A program made the translations under genes and the position numbers. The notes beneath the pieces were generated by a model. That model was not told the DNA's origin. It saw only the letters and a program-made list of their open reading frames with translations, and searched no databases. A stretch of 64,000 bases of DNA. Source: Marsupella aquatica (Eukaryota; Plantae; Marchantiophyta). The first letter of the stretch is position 1. Each line of letters opens with the position of its first letter. Shown in pieces: positions 2,729 to 64,000 of this stretch. Location: assembly GCA_973895155.1 (NCBI GenBank), contig OZ316891.1:26343972-26407971 (forward strand). The letters are read 5' to 3'.

Positions 2729-5464
2729 CTATCCTTCAATCTTGATCGTTGATCTTCGTATCACCACAAGGACTACCTCTCCATTTTGGTGATCCTTTTT
2801 GCGTCCTTTTGCCCCCCTCAAGCTTGCAATTGACCATCTCTGAATGTACCGGTGGACATCCCAAAAAAGAGTTGGCCACCAATAGCCAGCATCCAGTATC
2901 TTCCTAGCTGTGGTTTCTCGTGCAAAGTGGCCACCGACTTCCTCCTCATGTAGTGCCGCCATTACTGTACTTATCTCAACCTCCTCCAAACAATGACGAA
3001 GGCGTCCATCCATCCCGTATTTGTGAAGTACTCCCTTCACAAGCAAGTAGGGCCCCATCTTGCGTAAGAACACTGTTGCACGTTCCGGACCCAACCGTAA
3101 TGGAACCCTGGCCGTACGGAGAAATTCAAGAATTTCTCCATACCAAGTGGTGGCCTCCGCAGTCACCTTGAAGACCTCTTCATCGGGAAAACGATCATCA
3201 ATCTCTTGAGAGTCAGATGCTCCCTCAATACGGGAGAAGAAGTCAGCATTGCTGTGACTCTTCCCGGATCTCACCCTCACCTCATAGTTGAACTCCTGCA
3301 ACAATAGAACCCAACGTGCAATCCTTCCAGACAAATCCAGCTTATTGACCATGTACTTCAAACTATTGTGATTCGTATGGAACACCACTTTGTAACCCAA
3401 CAAATAGTGACGATATTTCTTGCAAGCGTAAATGATACCAAGAGCCTCCCTATCGGTGGGTGAGTAATTCCTTTCGGCCGGTGCCAACTGTCTACTAGCA
3501 AAGTAGATGGGGTGATCCCTCCCATCCTCATCCAGTTGGCTGAGGACAGCACCTATGCAAAATCCTGGTACGTCAACATAAACATGGAACTCTTTTGCCC
3601 AATTGGGGGTAATGAGTACCGGAGCCTCTAACAATCTCTTTTTCAATTCGTCAAAGGCAGCTTGCAAGGAGGGAGTAGGTTCAAACTCACTTCCCTTCTT
3701 CAACATGGACGTGAGTGGCATGGCCACCTTGGCAAAGTCTTTGATAAATCGTCGATAGTAGCCAACACAACCCAAGAACCCTCTCACCTCCTTGACATTG
3801 GTTGGAAAGGAGACGGCCACCCACACGGCCACCTTCTCTCGATCAACTTCAATTCCCCTAGCGGACACCTTGTGGCCCAACAGAATCCCCTCCTCAATTC
3901 CAAAGAAACATTTCTCAGGATGGAGCTTCAAGCATGTCTCCCGGCACCGCTGAAAAGTCAACCGTAAATGTTCAGGATGATTGACTCGCTTGCCATAGAC
4001 AGCAAAGTCATCAATAAAAATCTCCAAAGAACTGACGCAAAAAGTCATGGAAGATGTTCATCATGAGTCGTTGGAACATGCCCGGGGCATTGCACAACCC
4101 AAAAGGCATCCTTCTAAACGCAAAAATTCCCCACTCCGTCGTGAACGCCGTCTTGAGTTGGTCCTCTTGCCGAATCCAGATCTGGTTGTAGCTAGACTAA
4201 CCATCCAGGAAACTATAAATTTCCCACCCTGCTACCATGTCTAGCACAATGTCCATGAACGGAAGGGGGTAATGGTCCTTCTTGGTGGCCTCATTTAATT
4301 TTTGAAAATCTTGACACACACGTATTTTCACCTTGCCGTCTGGCCCTTCTTCTTGGGCACAATGACAATGGGTGATACCCTCTCACTGTGCATGACTAGG
4401 TAAATGAAGCCCGCATCCAACAACCGATCGATCTCCTCTTTGACCATCAATGAATACTTGGGATGGAGTCAGTATTGGCGCTGTTGTACCGACCGTGCTC
4501 CCAACATTAGGTCAATGCTATGCTCACCAAACTCAGGAGGTACCCCCTTCAAGTCTCGGTGGCTCCACGCAAATACGTCTTGGTATTCTTTCAACAACTC
4601 CTGAATGGTGTGTTGATCTATAGCGGCCAACTTGCGGCCAATGTTGAGGGTCTTCCCTTCACTGACCACCACCCTCGTATATTGCTCTGGTCTAATTACA
4701 TCCAACTTATTGTGGGTTTCTTTATCAAACGTTTCCTCCAAATATGCAAGCCTCATCCCCCCGTACACAGGCGCGTCGCTCTCTTGTTGGTCTGGCCGGG
4801 GCCTAGACGGGCCATGGGTCACATGGCTCATCATCTCCTCTACGTCCGCCTCATTTACAAATGCACATAGCTCCTCTCTTAGGTCATCATCTAGGATGTC
4901 ATTGACAAATCGCTCTCTCTGCTCATCATCAAACATGATATTGTGGGTCTGCCGTTTCACCTCCTCTGAGTGATCCTCCTCCACTGAGTGATCCTCCTCT
5001 TGAGTATCAGGGGTATGTAGTGGTTCAGCTCCCACAACTTCCACTCGCTCGTCTTTGGTTTCTTCTAGCATGATGCAACCTTGGCCAAGTGGCACCTCCA
5101 CTCCATTCTCCTCTGGGGTAGTAGCTTGGGGACCAAAAACATCCTCCTCTGTAAGGTGAGAAATCAATTTCACCATGTATACTTCATCTTCCTCTGAGGT
5201 GACCTCCAAATCGTATTGTTCCTCCATTGATGTAGTTTCCCCTTGAGGTGACTCCGCTGACCATGGAATGATGATAGTGGGGGTGCCAAACTGGAACTGT
5301 CGTTTTCCCCAATCGCTAGTCACCTTGGCCACGTACAACCACGGGCGGCCAATCAATATGGGAAAACCGTATGGCCTGATCGGCCGCATTACCAAGTAAT
5401 TGAGGGGAAAGGATTTGCCTCCAATCATTGTGGGTATCTTGGTGAGGCAACCCAACGGTACCAC
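2729..5464 (-). pseudogene. Gypsy pol pseudogene (protease C-half, RT, RNase H, truncated integrase)
   Basis: Motifs ILIGRPWL, WVSPIVIVPKK, DHYPLPF, MPFGLCNAP, FIDDF, VRGFLGCVGYYRRFI, IGAVLSQ, ERNYS, RIARWVLLLQEF and H..GGHF...YWWPTL. Stops and frameshifts lie in 4047-4470. The integrase core is deleted after HRYIQR (about 2840). Confidence 0.92.
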
Positions 5465-5699
5465 TCGTGCACCATCTTATTGTACGTAAACTATCTTTGG
5501 CGAGGTTGTAAGAGAACAAAAGCAAAAACAACTTGACATGTGCGCGTCACTACTACCCTTTAAAATCATTCTTTGGGACCATTGGCCCCGTCACATGGCC
5601 TGTCGGCCTAGAGTGCAGTAAAGCTCTTGTGTGTTCCCGTGGACGTACACTACAACATATTTGATACTTTTGTGAAGGTATTTTTGTCGACGCTCTTGT

Positions 5700-6145
5700 A
5701 TTTCCGATGGGCGGCGCTTGGCATAATTTGCGAATCAACCCGCATCGCAATTTGCGATTCTATCCCTATCGCAAAGATAACACTTGAAGCGCATTATATC
5801 GCTAATACGTTGTGAAGTAAGTGATTTTGCAAGTTTTACCGAAACGCGCCGAATGGAAAGCTGCCTTCTGAAGACGAGAAAATCGCTCGCCGACTCTGAA
5901 ACTAACTGATATAAATATTTGCGAAGAAGGTTGGATTGAAAATGTTTTGCGATAGTAGTTGTTTGACAAGTTTAAGAATGTCGGAGGATGGAAGATTTGT
6001 GAAACGGTGAGAATATGAAATTTGTGATTGATTTTGAATCACAAGTTTGCGAAGAGTATAGTATGGAAATATTGAGAAATGAGAAGCTTCATAGAAATTG
6101 CGAGTCCGGTGAGATTTTGTGAGCTTCGCAAATTGTTCGCAAACT
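5700..6145. repeat. CACTA left subterminal repeat cluster (TTGCGA/TCGCAA motif in both orientations)
   Basis: Many copies, e.g. aatttgcgaa, tcgcaatttgcga, tttgcgaaga, ttcgcaaattgttcgcaaa. Confidence 0.8.
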
Positions 6146-6606
6146 AAAAATTAAGATTATTGTGAGGTGAGACAATGAAGAGGGTGGATGGTCCAATATA
6201 TGGATGGGGCAGGAGGGAAGAGGAAGGGAGGATGGAGGGAGGTACAATGAAGGATGGAAAAGGGAGGGGAGTACAATGGAAGAGGAAGGAGGGAGGAGAA
6301 AGAGGAAGAGAGGAGGGACAAACGTACCACGGAGGAGGGAAACACGAGGGTGAGAATGAAAATTATGGAATAAGTAGGAAATAAAGTTATATTGAGCAAC
6401 AGAGGTTAGATAGAAAGTTGCATGTAAAATTCACAAGTGATCACAATAAAACAATACAATACATATGTCATGAGTATGACTCATTCAAAAGTGAATGGCA
6501 AATATAAATATAGACAATACTTTTTTTTATATCACCAAACATGAACAAATCAAATATAACATGAACAAATGTCTAGGCTGGACCCAAGTGCATATAAATA
6601 TGTCCC

Positions 6607-9600
6607 TCACACTTGGTCCTCATCAGCCTCAAGGTCATCTAGGTCTGATACAATAACATCTGGCTTCTCAGAAACAATGGAACGAGAACGTGGCACATAG
6701 GTGATGACAATTGACCACTCGGTGTCTAAGGGGTATGGAATGTAGAAACATTGCTCCAAGTGTGATGGGAAAGCAAATGGTTCTGATGTTTGCCAATGAG
6801 ATGCTTGAACACTAGTGGCACTTGTCTTCAACCATGTAAACCCACTCTCATCTTGAAGTACAATGCAATTTTGACCAACAAGGTTCACTTTGAACCACTT
6901 GCACTTGAAGACATATTCCTCAAACTTTAAATGGTTGTCATATGATACCACCAAGATCTCCTCTATCTTCCCATAGTGTGGCACAACATCTCTAACAATG
7001 TTCCTGTCATGGCGGCTGCTTCTGGAGTCTTGAGAAAATTCCCCTTGAACTCCACAATCAAAAGTATGACCCCTCTTCTCATCAAGGGAAGAAACCCTGA
7101 AATTAACAAAACCCACAAATTTTTATTACACAAAAGATACCATTAATGTAATAATCATCAAAATATGACACCCATCCCTAAATAGCCAAAACCCACATGG
7201 CCTATGGCATAAATATAGAAGCCAACATTATAGTTATGGATGTCATTAATGATAATAGAAAGTTTTTAAACAATAGAAATAACTAATCAAAATAAGGTCT
7301 ACATGAATTAATAGAGGAAGAAAGGTTAGGTACTAGTGGACCTGAAGTGTCTCCCTTGTGTCCACATAGCCGTCTTGGATGTCACCACTCTCAAAGGGCC
7401 ATGAACAATGGTCCGAACGTCATCTGTGATGGTAGGAAAGTGGGACACATCTCCTCCTTGTGTCACCATGTCATCCAACTCAAGCAACTTTTGCTTCATA
7501 TACTCATGCATCTTAGGAAAAATTCTTGCTCTTTGACTTGTTCTCTTGGCATTCTCATAAAACTCTCTCCATTTCTCCATGATATTACTATTACTCAACA
7601 TAAATGTTGTCAACTGTGACCACTCTGTTGATGTCAACATGCGTGTTTTTGTGGCACCTGTTAAATGGTCCTCCTCCTCTTCTCTTTCCTCCATCCAAGT
7701 ACGTGGACAAGTAGGATCAATGGTGGCCAAGATGTTACTACAATAAAACATACTCTGCTGCCAAGTATCCTGTAGCTATGCTTCCCTCCACCCGTGCACG
7801 GTTACGTACATAAGCCTTCAACACCGCCATGTAACGCTCAAGCCAATACATCCATCTACAATGCACTGGACCTGCAATGGCAACCTCCCGCACAAGATGC
7901 ACAAGTAAATGAACCTGACAATCAAAGAAGGAAGGAGGAAGGGCTTTCTCCAACTTGCATACCACCTCAGCTGCCAATACCTCCATCCTAGGGATCTCTT
8001 CTACATATATCTCCTTTGAGCATATCCATCTCAACAAATGACCCAATGACCAGATGGCATCTTGCACTTCTTCACTCCCTATACCTATAATTGCCACTGG
8101 CAATATATGCTGCAATAGGCGATGATAGTCATGTGTCTTCAGATATCATGGCCACTTGTGATTGTCCTCCATCCCAAAAGCTTTTCGAAGGTTGGCACCA
8201 TAGCCTGTAGGAAACCGCATCTCTCCTATACGGTTCTGAAATTCACGTCTTTGGCCAACACTCAACATCCAAGGAGCAGAAGGACGATTCTCCACATCTA
8301 TGATAGGATCAATTGTCACCCAAACATCTGGATGCATTTCCATCTCCTCGCATGCCTCCCTAAAATTAGTGTCCTTCTCCCCATAAAAATGCTTTATCAA
8401 AGCCTTCCCCACATTTCCCTCTATGTGCATGGGGTCTAAGAGATGGCGGATCTTCAACTCAGACCAATAGGGCAAAGTGGCTAGTATACTCCACCTGGTC
8501 AAACCTGTCCTATCAAAGGTGAAGGAATCATTTGGGTCTGCCACCCTATCAGCTAGTGACTTCCAATGTGCAAAACTTGTTGCATCAGGAATTTCACGCT
8601 CATCACCAAATGGCATGTCAAAGGAGGAGAATAGAAGTGGATCAAACCTCATCTCATGCCCCATGGGAAGAAACTTTGTATGCCCAATATAAACAATCTT
8701 TCTAATCCATGAACAATATGTGGCCATGTCCTCTAAGCTTGGGCCACAAGTAGAGCAAGCTTTGTACCCCTGAGTTTGCAATCCAGAGACAAAACCAAAC
8801 CCTGCTTACATAGAAGAAATCAAACCATGCAAACTTTATGTTAGGGTTGTCACATGAGAAACAACAATAGGAACTACACATTATTGAAGGGTTGCAAATG
8901 GCATGGAAGTTATCTTACCAGGATAGTCATGCATTGTCCAACAAATGATCCCTCTCAATTGAAAGACACGTGGAAAACCTCCTATAATTTTCCTGCCATC
9001 ATATGCCCACACTCCATCCCATAATTTTTGAAGTTCTCCAACCAATAGTGCCAAGTAAGTGTCAAAGTTCTTCACCTTTTTTGGACCTGGGATAATCAAA
9101 GACAATAAAAGGAACCCCTTCTTCATGGATAGCCATGGTGGGAGGTTATAATTCATGACAACCACAGGCCAAACTGATGTAGGTTGCCCCTTTCCTCCAA
9201 GTGAATGAGGGCTAACTCCATCAGATGCCAATCCTAGCCTCACATGGCGAGGATCATGTGCAAAGTCTGGCCATGTTGCCTCAATATGTTTGTGAGCAGG
9301 GGAGTCAACTAGCAAACGCATGACACCAGACTCTGATCGATGAGTCTTATGCCATACCATCAACTCTGCCAAGTCAGAACACCGATACATGTGCAACAAC
9401 CGAGGAATGATGGGAAACCAACTAACAGCCTTCCTTGGCACCTTCTTTGTTAGCATGTTGGGGTCATAGCAAGGCTCATCACATGTTGTACATTGTGTCA
9501 TGTTTGCATTGGCCCCATGAAATAACATGCAATCATTCACACATGCATGAACAATATGATATTCCATGCCAATAGATGAGAACACTCTTTGCCTCCTTCC

Positions 9601-11420
9601 AAGTTGCTGGCAACACATTCTCAGTGGGTAACATAAGGTCATGGCAAAGTGCAAACATATCAGATAACAAGGCATTGCTTGCCTTGTGTTTGGCCTGTAG
9701 GTTCATCAACCCCAAGATGGCTGAAAGACGACTCAAACGAGCACCCTCATAGATAGGTGTTCGGGCATGTTCCTCTACTTCTTCCCATTGGCGTTGTCCC
9801 TCAGGGGTATGTCTTGGGCGTGGATCATTGGGGGGCACCTGCCCTTCATTGGGAAGGTCATCACCAGGGTTGTCGGCACCAAACCAATCAACCATAAAGT
9901 CATCCATGGCTCTATCCTGGTCATCAGTTACTTGTTCATCCGTCCAAGGTACCTCTTCATCAGGGTTACTGCTTCCACTAGCACTTGATGAGGAGTGTGA
10001 CTCTGATCCATGTCCTTCTTCTGGCATACCCATTTCTCGATATGTTGCTCTCAATCTCCATGGTAACATATTTGGAGAGGGTCGCACATTCTAAAAACAA
10101 AGCAAACAACTGAAAGTTATATTGCAAAGAGAACACACACAAAAATGGGCTAGGGGTGTGCAAAAATGAAATAATATTGGTTGTGGTGCAAATACAAAAT
10201 GTGGCCAAAGGCCATATGTAGTGTCCTTTGATATGCAACATACCACCTATGACCCTTAACTTAACCCTAATCCCACTCATAATGAGTAAATAACTCATCC
10301 CCTGAGTTAATGGTCCTCGTCGCTACAACTAGGCAATGGTCATGATGATATGTCTGGCCATAAGGTGCTGGGGGAGGACCCTCAATGAAAACCCACTCAC
10401 AATTTTGCCTACGCTTAGGGCGAGTCCCCACGGTACTGTTTATGAAACCAGAAATATTCCCAGTCCGTATGGGGTCCCCATCTATGACACGTTGCTCACC
10501 ATACCTTCTAGTGTTTTCATCAAAAGTATCCATGTCCAATGCATAAGTCTTCCACTCAGGGTGTTGTGCAAGGATCATGTTCCAATGTCTTCTCTTGTAG
10601 ATGGGTCCACCATAAGGAAACAAAGTAGGCCCCTCTCGGCCGCGTCCACCTCTACCACTCTCGGCGTCCACAATGATGTCCTCACAGGCAAAAAATCCAT
10701 AGCCATGTCTATCCCCAAGTGTGGAAGGTTTGATAACCCAACATCTACCCCAAACCTCTACCTCCTCACCGTAGGAAAGTTGTTGTGGCAAACCAAGAGT
10801 CTCAGGATCCCAGTCCTTGATGATAGGGACACATCTGCCAGTGAACTCACAATCACCCCACCTACCCGTAACCACTGCCTTGTACAAATCAGTATCCCCT
10901 CGGGCCCGCCTCTTGGAATGCTTTCTCCCTCTTGGGACAATAGCCTCAACCCCAACTTCCCTAGGACTGGTGGGCCTTGCCGCTAGACCCAAGGCTTTTG
11001 AGAATGCATTGCCTATAGCATCTAGAACACCTTGTGATGGGACATAGGGTGCTTGTGCCGTAGGTCTAGGCCTATTGGATACCTATTCCACCGAAACCAA
11101 AACAAACAAAAGTAGGTGTGAAATTAAAAACCTTCAACCATTGAGTAATGGGAATAGGGTAGGAAAACTAAGGCATAACACTTACCATATGAGATGAAGA
11201 AGCCCCCTGCCGTATGACGTCCACAACGCCCATATCTCTCAATATGTTGGGCACATATGTAAGATTTTTGGGAAACCTGACCCACACATCTGGAACATTC
11301 ACAAAGTTGACAGGGTGGACCGTGAGGAGGAGGTGCGGTTGTGTGATGTTGAGGTGGAGGTGGTGTATCTTCATCAGAGGAGGACGAGTCTGTGGTGGAG
11401 ATTTCAGAAGATGAAGACAT
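6607..11420 (-). pseudogene. CACTA TnpD/Tnp2-type transposase, spliced and disabled. Predicted exons 11420-11186, 10090-8919, 8801-7342, 7096-6607
   Basis: Motifs HACVNDCMLF, WFPIIPRL, RLGLASDG, WPVVVMNYNLPPW, WTMHDYPG, LDPMHIEGNV, KTHDYH, HLLVHLV..GPV...WMYWLER..LK.YVRNRARVEGSI and FKCKWF. GT-AG introns keep the frame. There is a stop at 8146-8148 and frameshifts near 9590, 7745 and in exon 1. Confidence 0.93.
10267..11082 (-). CDS. SET-domain (lysine methyltransferase-like) terminal exon nested in intron 1 of the CACTA transposase gene
   Basis: Open 271-codon exon after a pyrimidine-rich AG acceptor (11083). SET motifs in order: GYGFFACEDI, PYGGPIY, YALDM, IDG...GNISGFINS, NC, VATRTINSGDELFTHY. 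Basic NLS-like stretch PRGRKHSKRRAR. Confidence 0.85.
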   Translation of the reverse strand, partial: VSNRPRPTAQAPYVPSQGVLDAIGNAFSKALGLAARPTSPREVGVEAIVPRGRKHSKRRARGDTDLYKAVVTGRWGDCEFTGRCVPIIKDWDPETLGLPQQLSYGEEVEVWGRCWVIKPSTLGDRHGYGFFACEDIIVDAESGRGGRGREGPTLFPYGGPIYKRRHWNMILAQHPEWKTYALDMDTFDENTRRYGEQRVIDGDPIRTGNISGFINSTVGTRPKRRQNCEWVFIEGPPPAPYGQTYHHDHCLVVATRTINSGDELFTHYEWD

Positions 11421-11859
11421 ATCCCCTGTAACAAGATATAATTAAAATGGGCATGTTATGACCAAAACATACCACAAAATGATATAAATCAAAGTTCCCA
11501 AATAATGATGACAAGAAACCCAAACCAAAATGACCATAGCAATAAAAAATGTACCTTTATGAGACCCGGGCTCAATAGTGCCAATAGGTCTTGTGGCTCT
11601 AAGATAATTAATGAACCCAATCTGAAAGTATGAGGGAAAAGCTGCAACCATTCCATGTATATGTAAGCATAATAATCTGGACCAGACAAGAACAAAAAAC
11701 CCTATATACATGTCCCCTTTATACATAGTGGCAACCAAAAGTGTTAAGTACATGAAAGGAACACTTGAGCCGATCATGCAATGTTTACCTTTCAGATGCC
11801 CGGGCTCTCACAATGCATATGCATTAGTATCAAATCATCAAAAAGTGCCGCACCCTGCA

Positions 11860-12560
11860 AGCTATCATATATTCCCCTCCTTTGTTAGCAAAACCCATGC
11901 CAATCCCTTTTTGATTCATAAACCCAATGAACCTCTCTTAAACCCAAAAGGCTCCAATATAAATCTCATGAAACCTTGCTTTGTCTTATCCAAACCTTCA
12001 ACCCCAAACCGCATCCTACCTATTAAACCTAAATCTGCCTTACACACAAACCCAAACCTTTCTTCAACCCTAGAGACCTTTCTATTTAGAAACCCCAAAC
12101 CCTAAAACCCTAAACCCAAACCTTACTTATTTCTTGTAAACCAATTCCCACACCTTTATTATTTCTTCTAAACTAATGTAAACCCAAACCTTAGCCTAAA
12201 CCAACACCATACATAACCCATTAACCTGAAATCTGCCTAACCCTTCAAACCCGCCTTCAAGTATTATCTAACACCCAAAACATGGCCAAAAAGCATTCCA
12301 AATATGAGTATAGAGGGGTCCACTTCACCTTTGAAAAAAACCCTTTCAAATGAAACCAACATTCCCCCCAGGACGAGTTGCCAATGTCTTGCGAAGCCGC
12401 TTTCTTCGCAAATACCATCACAAATTAGAATTGAGGTTTGCGAAGCCTTTCACGTCGCAATGGTTTCGCAAAATTGAGAAACTACATGCGAAACGAGAAG
12501 GATCGCAACTTGCGAAACGGGTTGCTTCGCAAGTCTTTCCCGCTTGTACTTTTGCACTCG
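11860..12560. promoter_or_regulatory. Divergent promoter region between the transposase/SET gene and the second CACTA gene
   Basis: Lies between head-to-head ATGs (11420 minus, 12646 plus). Contains AAACCC(T)A telo-box-like repeats and an internal TTCGCAA/TTGCGAA cluster at 12388-12535. Confidence 0.5.
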
Positions 12561-12645
12561 TCCGCGGTGTACTCAGCGGCATTTGACAAACTTCAAGCGT
12601 AGGGAGGGAGAAGGGAGCTCGCGCGCGCTCGGGGGTGGCTTAGCT

Positions 12646-14593
12646 ATGGATTCCAGTGGAGCAAATGGAGGTGATGGGGCAGGGGTGAGTGACAGTGGCA
12701 ATGGGAATGAAGGCAATGGGGAGCAGGAGAGGAATCGATGGACCGATTTGATGGCTGAGCACCTCAATGCAGCACAGTTGAGCTGCTTAGATTTGACTAC
12801 ACCAGCAGGGATTGCTTCTTTGAGTGCAATCCTAGGGCAAGCCTTGCAAACGGGAGTAGATGCAGGGAACATTGCAAGGGAGGAGGAGCAAAGGAGTGCA
12901 GCTCAACAGAAGGCAAGAGAGAAGAAGCGTAAGAAGGAGGAGAGGGCCAAGGCAGGAGTAGTCTCACCTGCTGCCCTAGAAAAGAAGAGGAGGAGAGAGG
13001 AACAAGATGAGATAAGAGCACAGCGGGAGGAGCAGCAAAAGAAGGAGGAAGAGAGGAAGAAGCTGCCTATGATTGCCTTGATCGAAGGCATTCCTACTGA
13101 ACTGGCCTACACCGGGGCAAAGAGCACTATCAGGCTTATGGTGCGCTCCAATTTTGCACGAGGAGTTGAGTGGGGGAAACTCAGCAAGGCAGACCAGAAG
13201 AAAGTAATGAGTCAAATCAAAGATTCATTTTGAAATGGAGCAGAGATTGATGAACAGTGGCTTGCAGATAGAATTTCCAATTCAATGTCTCAAGCACGGT
13301 ACCATGATAGGAAGAAGGTAAGGGCCTACCTGGCAAACTTGGAGGAGTACAAAAACGTGAGGAGGCCGCTGTTCACTGAGGACGTGTGGAATGCCTTTTA
13401 CAAAGTGGAGGTGCAGATGAGAGCTGCCAGGAACCTTCTCTTCTGGAAGGAGATGGAAGCCAAGGCACAGAAGGCCGGGAAGTCCGACCGAGACCTCAAG
13501 GCAATGGCTGAGAAGGTGTCTCACATGCAGCACATTCTGGATGAAGTGGGGGCACCACCCCAAAAATTCATCCTTGCAGCTGAGCGAGTCAGCAAACGGC
13601 CCAAGACCACGCACAAGATGGGCCAAGGTGGACTTCCCGGCCTCAAAGCACACTTTGTGAGTGGGCCCTCTCCTCCCCTGCTTCTGTTTCCTTGCTTTCA
13701 ATTGGTATCCAAACCTGCAATGCCCCCTGCATACCTCTTGTTTCTTTCTTACGGCCTGCCTTGTACTTTAGGTCACCCTGACACATTGCGTGCCTTAGAG
13801 ATTTCTCGGAATTTTTTAAAAATAGAGTTTGCGAAGCTTTTGCGATGCGGGTTGCTTCGCAAATGTTTCGCAAAGTCTATCATGGCATTTTTTGAAGTTG
13901 TAGATGCGAAGCTATTGCGAACTAACCCGCTTCGCAAACTACTTTGCAAACAGCCAATTTATTTGAAAGTGGGGAGTTTCGCAAGTGTGTATTATGTTTA
14001 AAAAATACCGCTAAGGGTTATTGAGCCCAGTTTTGTGTTAGGGGGCACCCTATTAGCACCTCCATGCATTTTTCTTGGGTTTATGGCATATTAACCTCGA
14101 TCAATTTTGGTTTTGGAATGTTTGGTTGTGGTAGTATAAGAGGTACCACAGGAAGATAACAGCAAAAGAGATGGAGATAGGAGCTGCGCATGGAGCCAAA
14201 CATCTCTTTGACTTGGTTGACGCAGAGTTGGCAACTATAAGTGCATGTATTCCCTTCAATTTTTCCCACCCAATCCACTTATCTTTTCATTCCGTAAACC
14301 TAAACCAATTTGGCGTTGTGCTGTGCAAATAGGATGATGAGGATGCCAGTGATACCGGCAGCACTGATGAGAACAATGAGGGGACCACGACAAAGGGGCC
14401 CAAGGTAGGAGGGAGTAGTGGATCTGGACCAGTAGGAGGAGTTTCCCAGCAGGAGGGGGAGGATGAGGACGAGGATGAGGAGGAACCAGATGTGGAGGAG
14501 CAGCCAGCACCACCTCCTGTGCCACGTCCGGATCGTTGCAAGAGGGACAAGGGGAAGAGGCCAGCGACAAGGAGTAGGAGGACCCCATTCTAG
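12646..14593 (+). pseudogene. Second CACTA gene (positional TnpA-like accessory protein; charged coiled-coil, acidic C-terminus), spliced, with a premature stop
   Basis: ATG at 12646 (MDSSGANGG). In-frame TGA at 13231-13233 with the reading frame continuing. Donor GTGAGT at 13657, a middle exon at about 14141-14240, and a last exon from about 14333 (DDEDASD...RRTPF*). Confidence 0.7.
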
Positions 14594-14844
14594 AGCTTGG
14601 TGGTGTAGTGCCTATGGGATGCCCATTTACTTAGTGTAGTATATAGTTTTGATATGGGTAGTCTTATAGGGACCTAGCTTGTCATATGACACCCATCTAG
14701 GGTTTAGGGTTCAGGAAACCCTAATTTTTGTGTACCTATCAATTTTCTATAAAGCAATTTTGATTCAGACCTCATTCTCCGTGTTGGACAACAAGACCCC
14801 AACCATAATTCAAAACTCTAAATCTAAACCCTAGCCTCAAGACA

Positions 14845-15256
14845 GCTTGCGAAACCTATGCGAACAACCCAAATCGCATATTTACCATACTGAAGGTATC
14901 GCAAACATTATGCAAACCACATAAGTTCACACAAATGCGAAGCGATCTTCATGGCATAACTACCATTCATTTAATATCGCAAACATATTACCAAACTCCT
15001 GGGATTGCAAATATGGAACTGCTTGATTATTATTGCAAGCCTCTCGTGACGCCCACGGAGTTGCTTAAATGTGAGTCCTTTGCGATTCTATTAGTGTCGC
15101 AAGTTGCGAAGGCGTTGCGAAGGTCTTGCAAAAGACCGGATGCAAACCTTTGGGCTTCGCAGTTTGCGATTCTATTGCGATGCACGATACTTCGCAAAGG
15201 CGAGTTTTGTTTTTTGATTTCCTTTGTTGTTTGCGATGCTTTCAAGTTCGCAAAAG
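14845..15256. repeat. CACTA right subterminal repeat cluster
   Basis: Dense TTGCGA/TCGCAA copies adjacent to the right TIR. Confidence 0.8.
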
Positions 15257-15378
15257 GTGTAGGTAGTGTTGTAGTGGTAGCCTCATGTGAAGGGGAACCA
15301 CGTATCTCTCTATGTCGACTCTTGTGCGTTGGATGGTTCATGGGCTTACCGTTACGAATGTCGTTTATGCTCCACAAG

Positions 15379-15390
15379 TGGTATCAGAGC
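15379..15390 (+). promoter_or_regulatory. Primer-binding site (initiator tRNA-Met) of the Copia element
   Basis: TGGTATCAGAGC, 2 nt after the LTR end ...CCACA. Confidence 0.92.
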
Positions 15391-15402
15391 ATGCCTGGGA
15401 GG

Positions 15403-17439: not shown

Positions 17440-17588
17440 GACCAAAATTTGAATAACTTTTCTGTCAAATTTTGATTTTGATTTCGGCTTTCAATATTGG
17501 ACTTCTAGCTTTGTGGGCTATGCGGCGGTGTTGAGTTTTGAGTTTTATGAGAAGTTTTTAAAAAAGACATTTTTTTGTCATTGTTTCA

Positions 17589-20500
17589 TATGAGTTACTC
17601 GGAGGATACTGAAAGAATTGGCATCGGTGGAACTTCAGGATCGCGACAATCAGACGGAGAGTCTGAGGAGGAGCTGCTACCGTTTGAGGAAGAACTAGTG
17701 TCACCGGTACGATCACCGATTCGGCGTGCAGTGGAGGAAGCTATATTACTACCAAAGCTGTCGGTAGTTGGGAAGAAGAGACAAATGGTTAGATTTGGAA
17801 GAGTGAAGTTTGAGGTGGAGAAGTACGATGGTCGTACTGATTACTTGCTCTGGGAGAAGCAAGTGAAGGGTGTCTTTCAAGCCATGGGCTTAGCTCATCT
17901 ACTTTCTTTGCAAGAGCAGTATGACAGAGAGGAGGAGATTTCTGTGAAGCAGTGGAGACAGGAGCTGGTGATTGCTGTCAATGTCAATGATGCTACACCT
18001 CAAGACGTATATCATCAAGAAGCTGGATGATTATGATGACTGTGCATCACTCTTCAAGGCCCTAAGAGAGAAGTACTACCAGGAAGATGCGTCAGACCGG
18101 CTTTACAAGAAGTCTCTCTTGATGAGCCTCAGGCTCAAGGAAGGGAGCAAGCTGCAAGATCACCTAGATGAGTTTGACAGTCTAACGGTGGATCTATCAA
18201 ACCTGGGTAAGGGAGTTGAAGATAAGGATAAGGCCTTGCTTCTGCTAAGCTCCTTACCGCCATCTTCTCAGGGCTTCAAACAAGTGCTATTGTACAGAGA
18301 TTTGAAGTCTATTTTGTATTATGAGGTGGTGAGCTCTTTACTGTCTGATGATGCTCAGAAGAAGCTGGGTCAATCACAAACAGCATCTTCTTCTGGCACT
18401 ACGTTGAATGTGAACCGTGGAAGACCAGCGCATCGCACGAATGGGCAGAACAGGTTTAGATCTACATCACGGGGGAGATCTAAATCCAGAGGGAAATTGC
18501 AAGAGAGGAAGCCTCTTGCATGTTGGAAATGTGGCAAGCCTGGCCACATGAAAAGGGATTGTCGAGTAAAGGACCCTACTGCATCAGCTAACGCGGCATC
18601 GAGCTTGCGTGAGGTAGATTTTCTCGATGATGATGACATATTGTGATGCCAAGGTTATGCTCTCAACGTAGTGTCAAATCCAAGTAGTGATGACTGGATT
18701 CTAGATAGTGCATGTACTTTTCACATTTGCTCTAGGAGAGATTTTTTTAGTTCTTACACGGTTTCCAATGGGTCAGTGTTGATGGGAAATAGAATCTCAT
18801 GTCAAGTAGTTGGACTTGGATCTGTAAGAACGTTGAGGAATGTGAGACATATTCCCAGCATGATGAAAAATCTCATTTCACTTGGAGTTTTAGAAGCAAA
18901 TGGCCATCAGTGGAGTTCTGCTAATGGTGTCCTTTAGGTTTCAACTGGTACTAAAGTTGTATTGAAGGGAAAGAGACATAACTATCTATACGTTGGAGGG
19001 CAGAGTAGTCTGTGATGAAGCCAATGTAACTTTATCTCATGAGAAGATAGCCCGGCTGTGGCACTTCCGTTTGGGCCACATGAGTGAAAAAGGTTTGGTT
19101 GTTCTTCAGAAGAAAGGATTACTTTCTAATTTGTAATCTTGTAAGTTGGATTTTTGTGAGCACTGTGTGCTTGGGAAGCAGCACAGGAAACCCTTCGAAG
19201 TTGGAACTCACACCAACAAGGAGGTACTTGAGTATGTACATAGTGATGTGTGGGTCCAGCCCCTACTCCCTCATATTCTAGATGGTTATACTATGTCACG
19301 TTCATAGACGATTACTCAAGGTATGTGTGGATATACTTTCTACACAATAAGTCTGATGTTTTTGCCACTTTTAAGAAGTGGAAAGCCCAAGTTGAGAATC
19401 AGACTGATAATAAGGCCTGTGAGATATCTTCGATTGGATAACGGTGGTGAATACAGTTCCGGTGAATTTGGAACGTATTGTAAGGAGTAGGGGATTACAT
19501 GCCATCTCACAACAAGTTATATTCCTCAACAGAATGGTATTTGTGAGAGACTCAACCGAACATTATTGGATTGCTCGAGGAGTATGTTGAGTCAATCATG
19601 CTTACCACATGAGTTTTGGGCTGAAGCTGTCAACAATGCAACTTATTTGGTAATCATGTCTCATGAGACAGCCACTAGGCTTTATGAAGAAGGGCCAAGA
19701 GAACTTAGTTTGCAGATTGCTCAAGTCCTTGTATGGATTGAAGCAGTCTCCCAGATAGTGGAACAAGCGGTTTGATGATTTCATGTTTGCTCAAGGTTTT
19801 ACAAGGATGGTATATGATCCTTGTGTGTATACAAAATCAGTCAAGCATGATGTGTTTGGTTTTATCATTCTGGTTATCTATGTGGATGACATGCTGATTG
19901 TGGCTAAAGATCAATCTGAGGTTGACAAACTCAAGGCAAAATTGAGTGTTGAATTCAGGATGAAGGATCTCGGTAAGGCTAAGAGGATCTTAGGGATGGA
20001 GATTTTTAGGAACTCTGATACTGGATAGTTGTGCTTGAGTCAAGGCCAGTATGCAAGGAAAGTACTTGCACGATTCAACATGGAAAATTGTAAGCTAGTG
20101 AGTATTCCTTTAGCTTTACATTTCAAGTCATCATCGGCTTTCTCTCCTACGGATGCTGTGGAGAAAGGTCTGATGACAAAGATTCCTTATGAGAAGGCAG
20201 TAGGCAGTGTGATGTATTTGATGACTTGTACTAGGCCTGACTCGGCCATATCGATGGGCAAGGTTAGCAGATTCATGTCAAATCCAGGAAAGGTGCACTA
20301 GGAAGCTGTGAAATGGATTCTCAGGTACATGATGTGAAGGGAACACAGGACTGTGGATTACTATTTGATAATAGATCAGATAGAACATTGGTTGGCTATG
20401 TAGATTTTGACTATGGAGGCTGTCTGGATACAAGGAGGTCTACAACTGGGTTTGTATATACTCTTGGAGGAGGATGGGGGTATTTACAAACGATAGGAAA

Positions 20501-21027
20501 CAGGAAACAGTTACTGGTAACAGGAAAGTGGGTGGTAATTTTTTTGGATTTTTCTTTCTGGATTTTTTTTGGAAAATGTTTTTTTGGGGAAAAAGAGTTT
20601 TTTTTGTTTTGGTTTGTCATCATCATATTGCTAGCGCCCGGAGCTAACAATAGCAGCGCTTGGCGCTCGCAAAAAAAACCCATGATTTTAATTATTTTGA
20701 AAAATAAGACTTTAAATGGTATATTTTTAGATAGTGTTTTTTACTGGTAATAGTAAAATTTTCCTGGTACCAGTAATCCTGTTTTCCTGTTTCCTATCTC
20801 GGTGGTGATGCCCGAGGAGGATGTATCAATTGGAAATCTACCTTGCAGAAGTGCATATCTTAGTCTACTACAGAAGCAGAGTATGTTGCAGCAACAAAAG
20901 CAACAAAGGAAGCGATTTGGTTGGACAAGTTGATCGCGGAGATGGATTTAGAGCATGGCAAAATGTCTCTAAACTATGATAGTTAGAGTGCTCTTCACTT
21001 GGCTGCTAACCAGGTGATGGATAGCGT
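17589..21027 (+). pseudogene. Copia gag-pol pseudogene
   Basis: KFEVEKYDG..DYLLW, zinc knuckle CWKCGKPGHMKRDC, protease WILDSACTFH, LWH.RLGH, YYVTFIDDYSR, PQQNG, RT IYVDDML and RH GYVD.DY..CLDTRRSTTG. Many stops and frameshifts, and an internal deletion joining IN to RT at about 19655. Confidence 0.93.
20476..20813. mobile_element. Mutator-like MITE inserted in Copia RNase H
   Basis: 9-bp TSD GAGGAGGAT (20467-20475, 20814-20822). ~50-bp TIRs with core GATAGGAAACAGGAAA...TTACTGGTA.CAGGAAA. Removing it restores YTLGGGCINWKS. Confidence 0.88.
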
Positions 21028-23989: not shown

Positions 23990-24720
23990 GTATACAAGAA
24001 TGCACAGACCATGATTGGATGGTATACATGCCACACAATGTAGTCATTACTCAAACTACAAATATGGTATTCATGACTCCGCAACCTACAAATGGACAAA
24101 ACCATTTTACCTTGGATACACAATGGACATTGTATTCAAAGATCGCACTTAAACAAAGTTAGGACTCCCCTGCCTTACATACAGGCAGCAAGGCCTGCTA
24201 TAATGGACAAAACCAAAACCTGTTCAACATAGAATGATGTGTGTCTTGCATAGAATATGCACGTTGTATTCACATTTTCTCTGACTTTACAATGAAGACA
24301 CCCCCCTGCCGAAGCCTTCCCAAATGGACAAAACCTATCGTTTACAACACAAATATGATTTGTTATGTATACACTTTGCACGTTGTATTCGGATTTCACA
24401 CTTAGAAAAAAATTTGTCCCTTTGACTTTACAAAGACACCCCCCGCCGAAGCTTGCCCAAATGGACAAAACCTATTGTATTTCAACATAGAAATATCATT
24501 TGTCATGTATACACTTTGCTCGTTGTATTCAAATTTCACACTTATAAAACCATAATGTCCCTCCAACTTTACAAAGATGCCCCTGCCAAAGCCTGCACAA
24601 ATGGACAAATCCAATTGTATTTTAACGTAGAAATATGATTTGTCATGTATACACTTTGCACGTTGTATTCAGATTTCACACTTAGAAAGAAAGGTTGTCC
24701 CTCCAACTTTATGAAGACCC
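23990..24720. repeat. Degenerate tandem repeat, ~140-bp unit, about 5 copies
   Basis: Recurring AAATGGACAAAACC and GTATACACTTTGCACGTTGTATTC. Confidence 0.8.
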
Positions 24721-24833
24721 TAAACTTTAGAAACTCCCTATACATAGTTTACACAATATTATCTGGGTTTACTATTACATAGGCATCTCACTATAGCTTA
24801 TACATAGTTTACACAATATTTTGGTTTACCTAT

Positions 24834-25055
24834 TAAAGTCTCCGAAACTCACTATATACATAGTTTCTAAAGTCACCGAAACTCACTATACATAGTTTCT
24901 AAAGTCTCCTAAACTCACTATACATAGTTTCTAAAGTCACCGAAACTCACTATACATAGTTTCTAAAGTCTCTGAAACTCACTATACATAGTTTCTAAAG
25001 TCACCGAAACTCACTATACATAGTTTCTAAAGTCACCGAAACTCACTATACATAG
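24834..25055. repeat. 32-bp minisatellite, about 7 copies
   Basis: Unit GAAACTCACTATACATAGTTTCTAAAGTCACC. Confidence 0.92.
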
Positions 25056-53679: not shown

Positions 53680-54950
53680 GTAAGGAAAAGGCTCGGTCTA
53701 AGTCTAGATCTAAGTCTAGAGAGAAATCTCTAGAAAAAAAACTGGTTATATGCTGGAAATATAATAAGTCCGACTATATGAAAAAATATTGTCGAGTCAA
53801 GCAGACTAATCAACCATGAGCAAATGCAGCAATTGATGTTGATATGATTTACTTGCTCGATAATGAAATCTTGTAAAATCAAGATGTTGTCCTTTGTAGT
53901 TTATCTAGAAACAGCTATGATGAATGGATTTTGGATTGTACCTGTACATATCATATAACATATAAAAAAAAGTTTGTCAGTTTTTACTAGGTATCAAACG
54001 GTTCAGTATTGATGGGGAATGATCACCTTTGTCAAATTATTGGAATTTGATCTGTAAAGATTCGGATGTTTGATGAAGCTGTGCGGACAATGAAAGATGT
54101 TAGACACATTCTTGACATGAAAAAGATCTTGATTTTGTTAGGAATGTTGGAAGCGAATGAACATCAATAGAGTTCTGTTGATGGTGTACTTCAGGTGTCA
54201 ATGAAAGACAAAATTGTCCTGAAGGGTAAGCGGCATAATAAGCTCTATTTATTGGAGGGTAACTTAATCAGTGACGAAGCTAATGTAACTAGAACTCGTG
54301 AAGAGATGACTCGATTGTGACATTAGAGATTGGGACACATGAATGAAAAAGGCTTGGCAATCCTTTATAGGAAATGACTTATTTCTAATTTGGAATCATC
54401 TAAGTTAGACTTTTGTGAACATTGTGTGTTTGGGAAGCAGCACAGAAGAACCTTTGGTGTTGGAACTCACAATGCCAAAGCTATACTTGAGTATACATAG
54501 TGATGTATGGGGTCCAACCCCAATTTCCTCACTTTTTGGAAAATTGTACTATGTCACGTTCATTGATGATTACTCACGATATGTGTGGATCACATTTGTA
54601 CACGTTAGTCTGAAGTTTTTAGCACTTTTAAGAAGTGGAAAGCCCAAATTGAGAATCAGACTGTCCGATCCAAGGTGAAATATATGTGATTTGGATACGG
54701 CAGGGAGTACGGTTCCCATAAATTTGAACTATACTATGTAGAGTAAAGAATTACTCGTCATCTCACAACAATTTATACTCCTCAATAAAATGGTGTTTTT
54801 GAGCGGCTAAACCAAATACTATTGGAGCGCGATTGAGGAGTATGTTGAAGCTATAATTACGGTAATTTATTTGGTAAATCTTTCTCCTTCAAGTGCAATC
54901 AATTTCAAGATGTCGTTTGGAGTGAGGTATGGACGGCAAACAGACTATCT
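53680..54950 (+). pseudogene. Second Copia remnant (gag end, protease, integrase), related to the element at 17589-21027
   Basis: RSKSRSKSR, decayed zinc knuckle, EWILDCTCTYH, RLGHMNEKGL, HSDVWGP and YYVTFIDDYSRYVW. Many stops. Confidence 0.88.
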
Positions 54951-56944: not shown

Positions 56945-57570
56945 TTGGGCCCATTGCCGATCATGGAAATATGAACTATTTTTCTTACAGATCACCATAG
57001 GGGCCCGAGAAGCCCCACATGAGCCCGATCATGGGGCCGCATATTTCTCGGCCAACGGACCCAGGGGCCAAAAGTTATGACCGACTCAAGCCGCATACTT
57101 GTAATTTGGGCCCGTTGCCGATCATGGAAAAATGAACTATTTTTCCAACGGATCACCATAAGGGCCCAAGAAGCTCCACATGAGCCCAATCATGGGGCCG
57201 CATATTTCTCGGCCAATGGACCCAGGGGCCAAAAGTTATGGCCGACTCGAGCCTCATGCTTGTAGTTTGGGCCCGTTGCCGATCATGGAAAAATGAACTA
57301 TTTTTCCAACGGATCACCATAGGGGCCCGAGAAGCCCCACATGAGCCCGATCATGGGGTCACATATTTCTCGGCCAACGGACCCAGGGGCCAAAAGTTAT
57401 GGCCGACTCAAGCCGCATACTTGTAGTTTGGGCCCGTTGCCAATCACGGAAAAATGAACTATTTTTCCAACGGATCACCATAGGGGCCTAAGAAGCCCCA
57501 CATGAGCCCAATCATGGGGTCGCATATTTTTTGGCCAACGAACCTAGGGGCCAAAAGTTATGGCCGATTT
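56945..57570. repeat. 161-bp tandem repeat, about 4 copies
   Basis: TTGGGCCCGTTGCCGATCATGGAAAAATGAACT recurs at about 56945, 57106, 57267 and 57428. Confidence 0.93.
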
Positions 57571-62804: not shown

Positions 62805-64000
62805 AGCTAAGATCTACAGTGAATTGCAATGTCTTGTAAAATCACCATGAGGAATAACCTTGGTTAACATGTCAACTGGATTGAGTTTACCCTCAATCTT
62901 GACTAGCTCAACCTTTCCTGCTCACACTGCCTGTCTGATGAAGTGATACCGGATATCTATGTGTTTAACTCTGTCATGTGTCATTTGGTTGGCAGCAATG
63001 TGTAAAGCACTATTGCTATCACAATGGAGAAGCACAATGCGTTGTGTAATCCCCAAATCTTTCACCAAGTTGCTTAACCAAATCGCTTCCTTAGTTGCTT
63101 CAGCTGCTGCCACATATTCAGCTTCAATAGAAGATTGAGATATGCATTTATGCTTTGTGGACCTCCAACTCACACATCCACCCGCAAGAGTGAAAGTGTA
63201 TCCTGAGGTGGACTTCCTCTGGTCCAAATCTTCTCCATAGTTAGAGTCCACATAGCCAATCAATGATTCTGCATCTTCACTGTGTGCATCAAACAACAGT
63301 CCAACAGTAGAGGTTCCCTGCAGATAACGTAGTATCCACTTCATTGCTTCCCAATGTATCTTTCCTGGATTAGCCATGTACCTGCTCACCAATCCAACAG
63401 CATGTGCTATATCGAGCCTGATATAAACCATAAGATACATTAAATTACCCACAGCACTATCATAGGGAACCTTAGACATATGACCTCTCTCAATTGCATC
63501 TGTGGGGCAGGATACAACTTAAAGCTTAAAATGTGATGCCAAAGGAGTACTCACAGACTTGGCACTTGCCATATTGAACTTGACAAGAACCTTATTAGTG
63601 TACTTACTTTGTGTCAACCACAATTTGCCATTTTGCCTATCCCTATGAATTTCCATGCCCAATATGCACTTAGCAGCACCCAAATCTTTCATACTAAACT
63701 CAGAGCTCAATTGAGCTTTCAGCTTAGTAATGTCAGATTTATTCTTTGCTACTATGAGCATATCATCCACATAAAGAGCTAGCAAGATAAAACCAAAAGT
63801 TTTATCATTCACTCTTTTCATGTATAGACAGCAGTCATGCACACTTTGAATAAATCCAAGTAACAACATAAAGTCTTTGAACCTCTTATTCCACTATCTT
63901 GGACTCTGTTTCAATCCATACAAGGATTTTAACAGCTTGCACACCAGATGCTCCTTGCCTCTTTTGACATACCCTTCAGGCTGTCTCATGAAGATCACCT
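62805..64000 (-). pseudogene. Copia RT and RNase H (third copy), running off the window
   Basis: LLKSLYGLKQSPR*W, LYVDDML, MKDLG, GYVDSNY..D.RKSTSG, EAEY, CDS.SA and KHIDIRYHFIR. One stop and frameshifts. Confidence 0.93.

Follow-up and report, generated by a model that had tools for sequence, protein, structure and literature searches.

A 64-kb window of the genome of the liverwort Marsupella aquatica (the whole stretch analysed, 64,000 nucleotides of contig OZ316891.1, assembly GCA_973895155.1, positions 26,343,972 to 26,407,971) contains a complete CACTA transposon of 9629 bp (window 5648–15276), bounded by terminal inverted repeats (TIRs) and a target-site duplication (TSD), in which an open frame encoding a SET domain lies between the first coding exon and the body of the transposase gene. 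We found that this is likely a land-plant CACTA element in which SET is spliced, as an alternative last exon, to the zinc module of the transposase, as judged from sequence and predicted gene structures. The element would belong to an old moss and liverwort CACTA lineage with a zinc-SET isoform that methylates nucleosomes at the element and keeps it expressible, a reading to which we assign a probability of about 0.45.

The SET exon is predicted to begin with a short helix and an Arg-rich linker, followed by pre-SET strands and the SET core (approximately residues 105–268), with no post-SET. Its 271-codon open frame is far beyond chance expectation, because dinucleotide shuffling of the 1095-nt stretch produced a frame of such length once in 5000 trials. 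The translation matched PF00856 above the cut-off (E = 3.1e-5, 24.8 bits vs. 22.4), and an AlphaFold model of residues 55–271 based on an 82-row alignment reached a mean predicted local distance difference test score (pLDDT) of 90.3 and a predicted template modelling score (pTM) of 0.85; a model based on 35 close rows had a pLDDT of 42 and was unusable. All 41 rows listed by Foldseek against the PDB were SET enzymes, and VIA-align superposed 117–136 residues on SET enzymes at Z 11–12 with root-mean-square deviations of 2.2–3.3 Å (for one of them Z 12.1, 2.6 Å, 124 aligned residues). On these profile and model matches we regard the SET fold of the exon as real, which bears out the SET identity put forward in a first-pass annotation of the window. 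Among PDB sequences, the 82-row family profile had its best match in the bacterial LegAS4/RomA (E = 3e-6, whole SET core), and searches with the single sequence or the close-family profile gave no match. The ESM Atlas returned plant, giant-virus and haptophyte SET clusters, and neither these nor the LegAS4/RomA match indicate origin; in a viral fold library, none of 21 matches at E ≤ 0.001 was clearly closer than host enzymes.

Residues that are conserved in active SET methyltransferases were found in the family, namely GxG, YxG (a SET motif), the Asn of RFINHxCxPN and the Tyr of ELxFDY. Across the 82 rows, the S-adenosylmethionine (SAM)-binding and catalytic residues were retained, with G127 (68/72), G129 (70/73), Y/F157 (76/76), G159 (75/77), N215 (69/80), N227 (76/76), E263 (65/67) and the catalytic Y268 (59/63). 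RFINHxCxPN and ELxFDY are given as SET motifs in passages of PMC3980110, and GxG in passages of PMC10653858. An aromatic residue (W, F or Y) was conserved two positions after the catalytic Tyr in 43 of 59 rows. The part ahead of the core was rich in Arg, with at least four K/R in a 10-mer in 31 of 44 rows (no matched control), and had a median K+R fraction of 0.23 compared to 0.11 in the SET core. Methyltransferase activity of the zinc-SET protein appears somewhat better than an even bet, a level at which we hold it mainly because there is no post-SET.

Exon 1 encodes a Ser-rich and acidic start followed by a C-x-C-x2-C-x13-H-I-x2-YGR zinc module, and ends on the minus strand in the donor ATG|GTAAGT (11186/11185), with acceptors at 11083 and 10091. 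The first-pass annotation had described this donor with two AG acceptors, both in phase 0, and this arrangement held, its loosely written "11091-style" position being 10091. The stretch from the donor to 9990 has 31 YAG sites; of the 12 top-ranked acceptors listed, these two had the highest T content and opened the longest phase-0 frames (271 codons from 11083 and 185 codons from 10091), and the distal acceptor lies 176 nt beyond the SET stop. Exon 1 of the window copy is 235 nt long and one base out of frame, as had been assumed, with the surplus base in a G run at ~11203, after HIERYGRCGRHTA, a few codons past the HIERYGRC site first guessed. This base was absent from all covering depth of the public DNA runs X1, X2 and X3 and from one X6 contig, and exon 1 of the metagenome contig L001 is 234 nt long and in phase 0, with donor and acceptor as in the window; because family contigs and L001 lack the extra base, the frameshift is read as private to the window copy, or else as a sequencing error. 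Exon 1 is joined to the SET exon in phase 0 in 8 of 11 gene models with a named source (predictions), and since both conservation and gene models support this splice, it very probably occurs. No CT..AC intron was present among the listed joints (15 of 71) of contigs from X1, X2, X3 and X6, which cover introns.

The second acceptor would connect exon 1 to a transposase body with a strong Transposase_21 match (PF02992, E = 4e-37) and, in the Pfam scan, no PF13963 domain of its own. Family contigs have two more bases than the window copy at 9577/9578 and 7752, and an in-frame TGA lies at 8146–8148. A P-S pair upstream of the Met at 10069 is common to the window and the homologue P0042, and the residues before this Met are partly conserved. 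We consider splicing of exon 1 to the transposase probable, given a strong far acceptor that keeps the frame, partly conserved pre-Met residues and a TnpD-like zinc module. The spacing of the module agrees with what we take to be the spacing of the TnpD N-terminal domain. In three gene models, P0028 (Sphagnum) and the two distant homologues P0089 and P0127, SET sequence continues into the transposase. The parts follow one another in these models as they do in the window, and such models would be expected if part of SET were fused to the transposase in a single polypeptide, as in SETMAR. Such a fusion is nonetheless highly improbable, as the stop right after the catalytic Tyr is conserved, the three models use differing, truncating joins of the kind expected of mis-predictions, and the GTGAGT donor used in P0028 is missing from L001.

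We identified 39 close homologues, of which the 11 with a named source come from Sphagnum (8, five species), Calypogeia (2) and Riccia (1, Riccia sorocarpa), with the best match in Calypogeia fissa (71% identity). An exhaustive search gave 92 clusters at 50% identity, 90 of them new; among these distant matches, SET was detected in 43 (E ≤ 0.01) and Transposase_21 in 2, and a host-type partner domain in none of the 90. Pattern matches were confirmed in 1 of 229 metagenome contigs (L001), 0 of 12 viral contigs and 0 of 10 contigs from prokaryote genomes. When 134 proteins were searched with a zinc-module profile built on four close sequences, the module came out ahead of SET in P0057, P0050, P0082 and P0090 (E = 5e-7 to 1e-4), and alignment placed it there in P0075. 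Core identity to the window was 35–44% for the zinc-bearing P0050, P0057 and P0075, and zinc-SET sequences fell in three branches outside the window's clade in an unrooted tree of 64 rows (19 of 82 rows dropped for <75% core cover, a slice of P0089 added, no outgroup). Within X1, single contigs at ~99% identity bridge exon 1 and the SET exon (11026–12292) and the SET end and transposase exon (9730–10363). The zinc-bearing sequences and the models P0089 and P0127, taken as predicted gene structures, show that the linkage of zinc module, SET and Transposase_21 holds in distant members.

The ratio of nonsynonymous to synonymous substitution rates (dN/dS) between the window and L001 was 0.20 on 162 SET core codons (bootstrap 0.12–0.33; one pair) and 0.29 on 39 zinc-module codons. 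The first-pass annotation had named dN/dS and linkage to Transposase_21 as checks on its proposal; the core ratio, from this one pair, and the gene models that reach the transposase agree with it, and an assignment of SET as stable CACTA cargo under purifying selection is supported at the sequence level. CACTA elements frequently capture host gene fragments, according to passages of PMC8195511 and PMC8616336, and the window copy is broken, so that a passively captured fragment in the manner of Pack-CACTA, functionless for the element, was considered. Against this, the core dN/dS is 0.2, the layout is equal in moss and liverwort models and in members of 35–44% identity, and no host-like parent or host domain occurs among the 39 and 92 matches. 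On the selection estimate (one pair), the conserved layout and the relatives in Sphagnum, Calypogeia and Riccia, we rejected passive capture, which we regard as extremely improbable.

Under the nucleosome-methylation reading, a single promoter would yield a pre-mRNA whose exon 1 is spliced to either of two acceptors. Use of the near acceptor, across the 103-nt intron, would give a zinc-SET protein of ~349 amino acids, and use of the far acceptor, skipping 1095 nt, would give the full transposase; with the near acceptor chosen, SET would be made by default and the transposase only rarely. At the element, the zinc-SET protein would likely methylate lysines of nucleosomal proteins. More speculatively, the product of a second gene of the element (ORF2) would, like TnpA, bind the TTGCGA-N11-TCGCAA palindromes that lie in the promoter and at the ends, and recruit both isoforms via the zinc module; the Arg-rich linker of the zinc-SET protein could serve nuclear import or nucleosome contact, and the part of the missing post-SET would be taken by a partner or by the long loop that precedes the last strands. 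In a bolder form of this scheme, which we find doubtful, the default splice product is a histone methyltransferase without post-SET that places a permissive mark on the element, with a splice switch between self-protection and jumping; here the shared zinc module would dock either transposase or methyltransferase onto the palindrome-bound TnpA-like protein, and the splice choice could be set by the chromatin state of the intron between exon 1 and the SET exon.

Weighing against a nucleosome-methylating isoform are observations on the enzyme, on the join to the transposase and on anti-silencing in another plant. RFINH has Ser where the His is expected in 76 of 80 rows, all but one of 15 close members stop three residues past Y268 (the median over 59 rows is 6), and the AlphaFold model stops at the equivalent of SET7/9 residues 337–338, so that a post-SET is absent. 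Post-SET segments aid cofactor and substrate peptide binding, as described in passages of PMC10653858; the solved bacterial SET LegAS4/RomA, active according to the same source, likewise has no His in the NH motif (YINFS). Missing post-SET and the His-to-Ser change would suit a pseudo-enzyme, in which the fold is kept for binding to SAM, to a histone tail or to a host silencing factor, and a decoy or reader shields the element with no methylation involved. Plants use SET proteins that have no activity, SUVH2/SUVH9, as readers, which adds to the case for this alternative; pseudo-enzymes, however, usually lose catalytic or SAM residues, whereas the catalytic Tyr (59/63), GxG and the SAM-pocket Asn are kept across members at 27–45% identity, and we consider a pseudo-enzyme unlikely. 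In the same pair as above, dN/dS reached 0.84 on 35 pre-SET codons and 0.59 on 51 linker codons.

VIA Z values were tied within about 1 among SET1, EZH2, SET7/9, SET8, ASH1L and LegAS4 (13–27% identity), and because the domain is equally distant from SET1, EZH2, SET7/9, SET8 and ASH1L, subfamily and substrate are not readable from structure. This absence of a structural preference for a histone-specific subfamily is compatible with an active enzyme on a non-histone substrate, such as the transposase, the ORF2 protein or a host protein, which would tune transposition and not chromatin marks. The common zinc module would put zinc-SET into the transpososome, and many non-histone targets of SET enzymes are known from passages of PMC10653858. 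By comparison, the Arg-rich patch before the SET core, viewed without a matched control, fits nucleosome contact, and the SETs of other transposons are presented as acting on histones, with no test in the passages concerned; we give a non-histone substrate a low likelihood.

Regarding the join, PF13963 (Transpos_assoc) matched in 1 of 14 zinc-bearing sequences, below the cut-off (P0090, E = 0.031, 14.9 bits vs. 27.7), and an Atlas search with the zinc module gave no usable match. The first-pass annotation had likened exon 1 to the TnpD N-terminal zinc domain, for which this sub-threshold match speaks, with no match above the cut-off; correspondence of exon 1 to that domain is weakly supported. 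A weak search found no zinc module in any protein of 602–2000 amino acids, a direct join of exon 1 to the transposase was seen in 0 of 6 longer transposase matches, and the transposase's own Met (MLPxRL) is conserved in P0042, P0043 and P0044. That Met, together with the lack of a database protein joining exon 1 and transposase, would fit two genes, with exon 1 belonging to the SET gene alone and the transposase starting from its own ATG at 10069 behind a separate or non-coding first exon. This arrangement is fairly unlikely in our view, given that no acceptor in the stretch is richer in T than 10091, which also continues the frame of the family exon 1, that pre-Met residues are partly conserved, that the SET stop and the acceptor are 176 nt apart, and that the zinc module resembles the TnpD N-terminal domain (PF13963, in P0090), which is otherwise missing from the transposase body. 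Lastly, TnpA of Arabidopsis reactivates Spm with H3 lysine 9 methylation (H3K9me) persisting, according to passages of bioRxiv 10.64898/2026.08.24.746577, and because reactivation proceeds while H3K9me stays, a histone writer is dispensable for anti-silencing.

We compared the element with systems in which SET or a second product accompanies a transposase. SETMAR is a domesticated host fusion of SET and transposase, and shares with the element a SET beside a transposase; here the two would likely be alternative products of a mobile element. SET8, SET7/9, LegAS4/RomA and giant-virus SETs share the core fold, GxG, YxG, N and EL-x-x-x-Y with the family, but identity is 13–27%, and the solved minimal enzymes have a post-SET, whereas the family has none and carries long core insertions. 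Passages of PMC12730594 mention SET cargo in HarbingerS and Phytophthora MuDR, and those of bioRxiv 10.1101/2025.02.11.637652 in Helitrons and as Plavaka PAG2, a methylase-SET gene in red algae. HarbingerS, MuDR and Helitrons are similar in that a DNA transposon has its own SET protein, but they belong to other superfamilies and hosts and carry it in accessory genes, with no common first exon mentioned in those passages. PAG2, as described there, likewise has PF00856 as stable cargo of the EnSpm superfamily with a proposed chromatin role; it is however a separate gene of 17–19 kb Plavaka elements in which an N6-adenine DNA methylase is fused to SET, whereas the element here is 9.6 kb, has CACTA ends and Transposase_21, and carries SET after a zinc module in land plants. 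No N6-adenine methylase domain (PF01555) was found in window frames or the homologues scanned, and a SET without a methylase partner, inside the transposase transcription unit, sets the element apart from PAG2 by description. The first-pass view that SET was not known as CACTA cargo is partly wrong, given PAG2 in the EnSpm/CACTA superfamily. In our literature search, neither a land-plant CACTA with a SET exon nor a transposase gene that uses SET as one of its alternative exons came up, and passages of PMC11982613 and PMC11960707 contained nothing pertinent, though Repbase may hold such an entry.

Maize En/Spm and Arabidopsis Spm3 make TnpA and TnpD by alternative splicing, as stated in passages of bioRxiv 10.64898/2026.08.24.746577 and PMC13547354. 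The element resembles them as one CACTA unit likely giving transposase and regulator by splicing, with clusters of a TCGCAAA core at its ends; it differs in that the predicted spliced partner has a SET fold and is not the DNA-binding TnpA, for which the candidate is a separate divergent gene. TnpA of Spm acts via DNA demethylases of the host while H3K9me persists, and VANC21 of VANDAL is also an element-encoded anti-silencing protein with an unrelated fold, as far as the passages on these systems describe. Since the plant anti-silencing proteins VANC and TnpA work via DNA demethylation, a transposon SET would, if the proposed reading is true, add a route through histone methylation. Bryophyte transposons carry dimethylated H3 lysine 9 (H3K9me2) or trimethylated H3 lysine 27 (H3K27me3) depending on lineage, according to passages of 10.1101/2022.10.24.513474. 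The transposon SETs described before are those of red algae and oomycetes, and the passages on them contain no assay; because the present family occurs in relatives of Physcomitrium and Marchantia and its domain is small and well folded, the role of transposon SET proteins becomes testable. If active, a conserved SET enzyme with no post-SET would be an enzymological oddity, and if the bolder form is true, the element would encode the first transposon-borne histone writer testable in a genetically tractable plant.

The element shows the features of CACTA/EnSpm transposons, with TIRs, a 3-bp TSD, Transposase_21 and subterminal repeats in both orientations (Table 1); inverted repeats of the form CACTA...TAGTG are a hallmark of this group in passages of PMC4158355. 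Its completeness, claimed from the start, is confirmed by the 10-bp TIRs, the GTA duplication and an empty-site joint (5644>15277, three shared letters) in contigs of all four public DNA runs (X1, X2, X3 and X6). The flank is a high-depth repeat, and the empty-site contigs may therefore derive from paralogous empty copies, in which case the element ends are defined just as well. Exon 1, transposase and ORF2 are all damaged in the window copy, which is dead because of these lesions, and the SET exon is still open. No second copy of the element and no second SET were found elsewhere within the 64-kb window.

Table 1 Features of the CACTA element in the window, with strand and basis or remark.
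Feature	Position	Strand	Basis or remark
Left target-site duplication, GTA	5645–5647	.	Sequence; empty-site joints with 3 shared letters in 4/4 runs
Left terminal inverted repeat, CACTACAACA, 10 bp	5648–5657	+	Sequence inspection
Left subterminal repeats: 2 palindromes TTGCGA-N11-TCGCAA and TCGCAAA half-sites	5727–6143	.	Likely TnpA-type binding sites
TnpD-like transposase body: Transposase_21, DUF4218 and DUF4216, with introns	6607–10090	-	Pfam; broken at ~9577, 8146, 7752
Distal acceptor: T-rich tract, TAG 10093–10091, phase 0 into transposase frame	10091–10120	-	First in-frame ATG 10069
Terminal SET exon, 271 codons and TAG	10267–11082	-	Pfam, AlphaFold, Foldseek, VIA, alignment
Intron from exon 1 to SET exon, 103 nt, GTAAGT...TAG	11083–11185	-	Equivalent position in L001, 111 nt
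Coding exon 1, ATG at 11420; one surplus base at ~11203	11186–11425	-	Sequence, gene models, contigs
Upstream short exon, likely non-coding 5' leader, bounded by AG...GT	11555–11621	-	Conserved in L001; loose ends at 11552
Second upstream stretch ending in donor, likely leader exon	11789–11830	-	Conserved in L001; loose ends at 11786
3 palindromes TTGCGA-N11-TCGCAA between the divergent genes	12389–12532	.	One at corresponding place in L001
Second gene, ORF2, divergent from transposase; inferred exons 12646–13656 and 14333–14593; TGA 13231	12646–14593	+	Open frames
Right subterminal repeats: 3 palindromes and half-sites	14899–15254	.	Motif scan
Right terminal inverted repeat 15267–15276 and GTA duplication 15277–15279	15267–15279	-	Reverse complement of CACTACAACA

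All 10 copies of the palindrome TTGCGA-N11-TCGCAA that the window contains lie within the element, two of them in the ORF2 intron (13840–13937), and 100 shuffles gave none. Its core, TCGCAAA, matches CCVTCGCAAA, the motif bound by Arabidopsis TnpA-Spm1 in passages of bioRxiv 10.64898/2026.08.24.746577. CACTA/EnSpm elements also have a second gene, TnpA/ORF2 (Transposase_24); here ORF2 had no match among Pfam or PDB sequences and is likely TnpA-like, by its position and by an H-x2-G motif that we take to be typical of TnpA-like proteins. According to the passages that describe them, such proteins occur in flowering plants only, and ORF2 is a bryophyte sequence. ORF2 stands head-to-head with the transposase gene, compared to the head-to-tail or shared-transcript layouts of Arabidopsis Spm. 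The internal palindromes at 12389–12532 and 13840–13937 resemble the subterminal ones, and one is retained in L001; their presence suggests autoregulation by the element's own DNA-binding protein.

The two putative leader exons, 11555–11621 and 11789–11830, correspond to L001 433–495 and 267–308 and are far better conserved than their introns; the first differs by 4 nt in length between window and L001, and its flanking introns have diverged. Both end in a similar GAGCCCGGG...AAAG|GT motif, and diverged contigs stop at their donors. They could form a regulatory leader. RNA folding of the first leader gave z-scores of -2.3 in the window and -0.8 in L001, and that of the second gave nothing, so that no conserved structure is claimed.

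Among the homologues, P0110, P0113, P0114, P0128 and their tree neighbours are the most distant SET relatives (25–35% identity), keep the core insertions and have no zinc module, and the N-terminus of P0110 is Cys/His-rich; these relatives may belong to other mobile elements.

The insertion site of the element is a ~210-bp repeat resembling a long terminal repeat (LTR), with flanks at 5537–5647 and 15277–15392, that runs from TG to CA and is followed by TGGTATCAGAGC, presumably an initiator-Met primer site. This repeat had very high depth in all four runs and lies in a Gypsy-like pol remnant (2729–5476), and no second copy of it was present within the window. A CACTA-like pentamer, CACTACTACCC, at 5548–5560 sits within this LTR-like flank and was rejected as an element end, being 100 bp left of the true end with no partner or duplication. 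Degenerate gag, integrase and reverse transcriptase stretches, which we assign to Copia-like elements on motifs as we know them, occur at 17551–20900, 53706–54848 and 63076–63991, with ~67–78% mutual likeness. A tandem array with a ~161-bp unit and 92% identity occupies 56945–57567, and shorter, more diverged arrays lie at 24202–25055 and 1482–1766.

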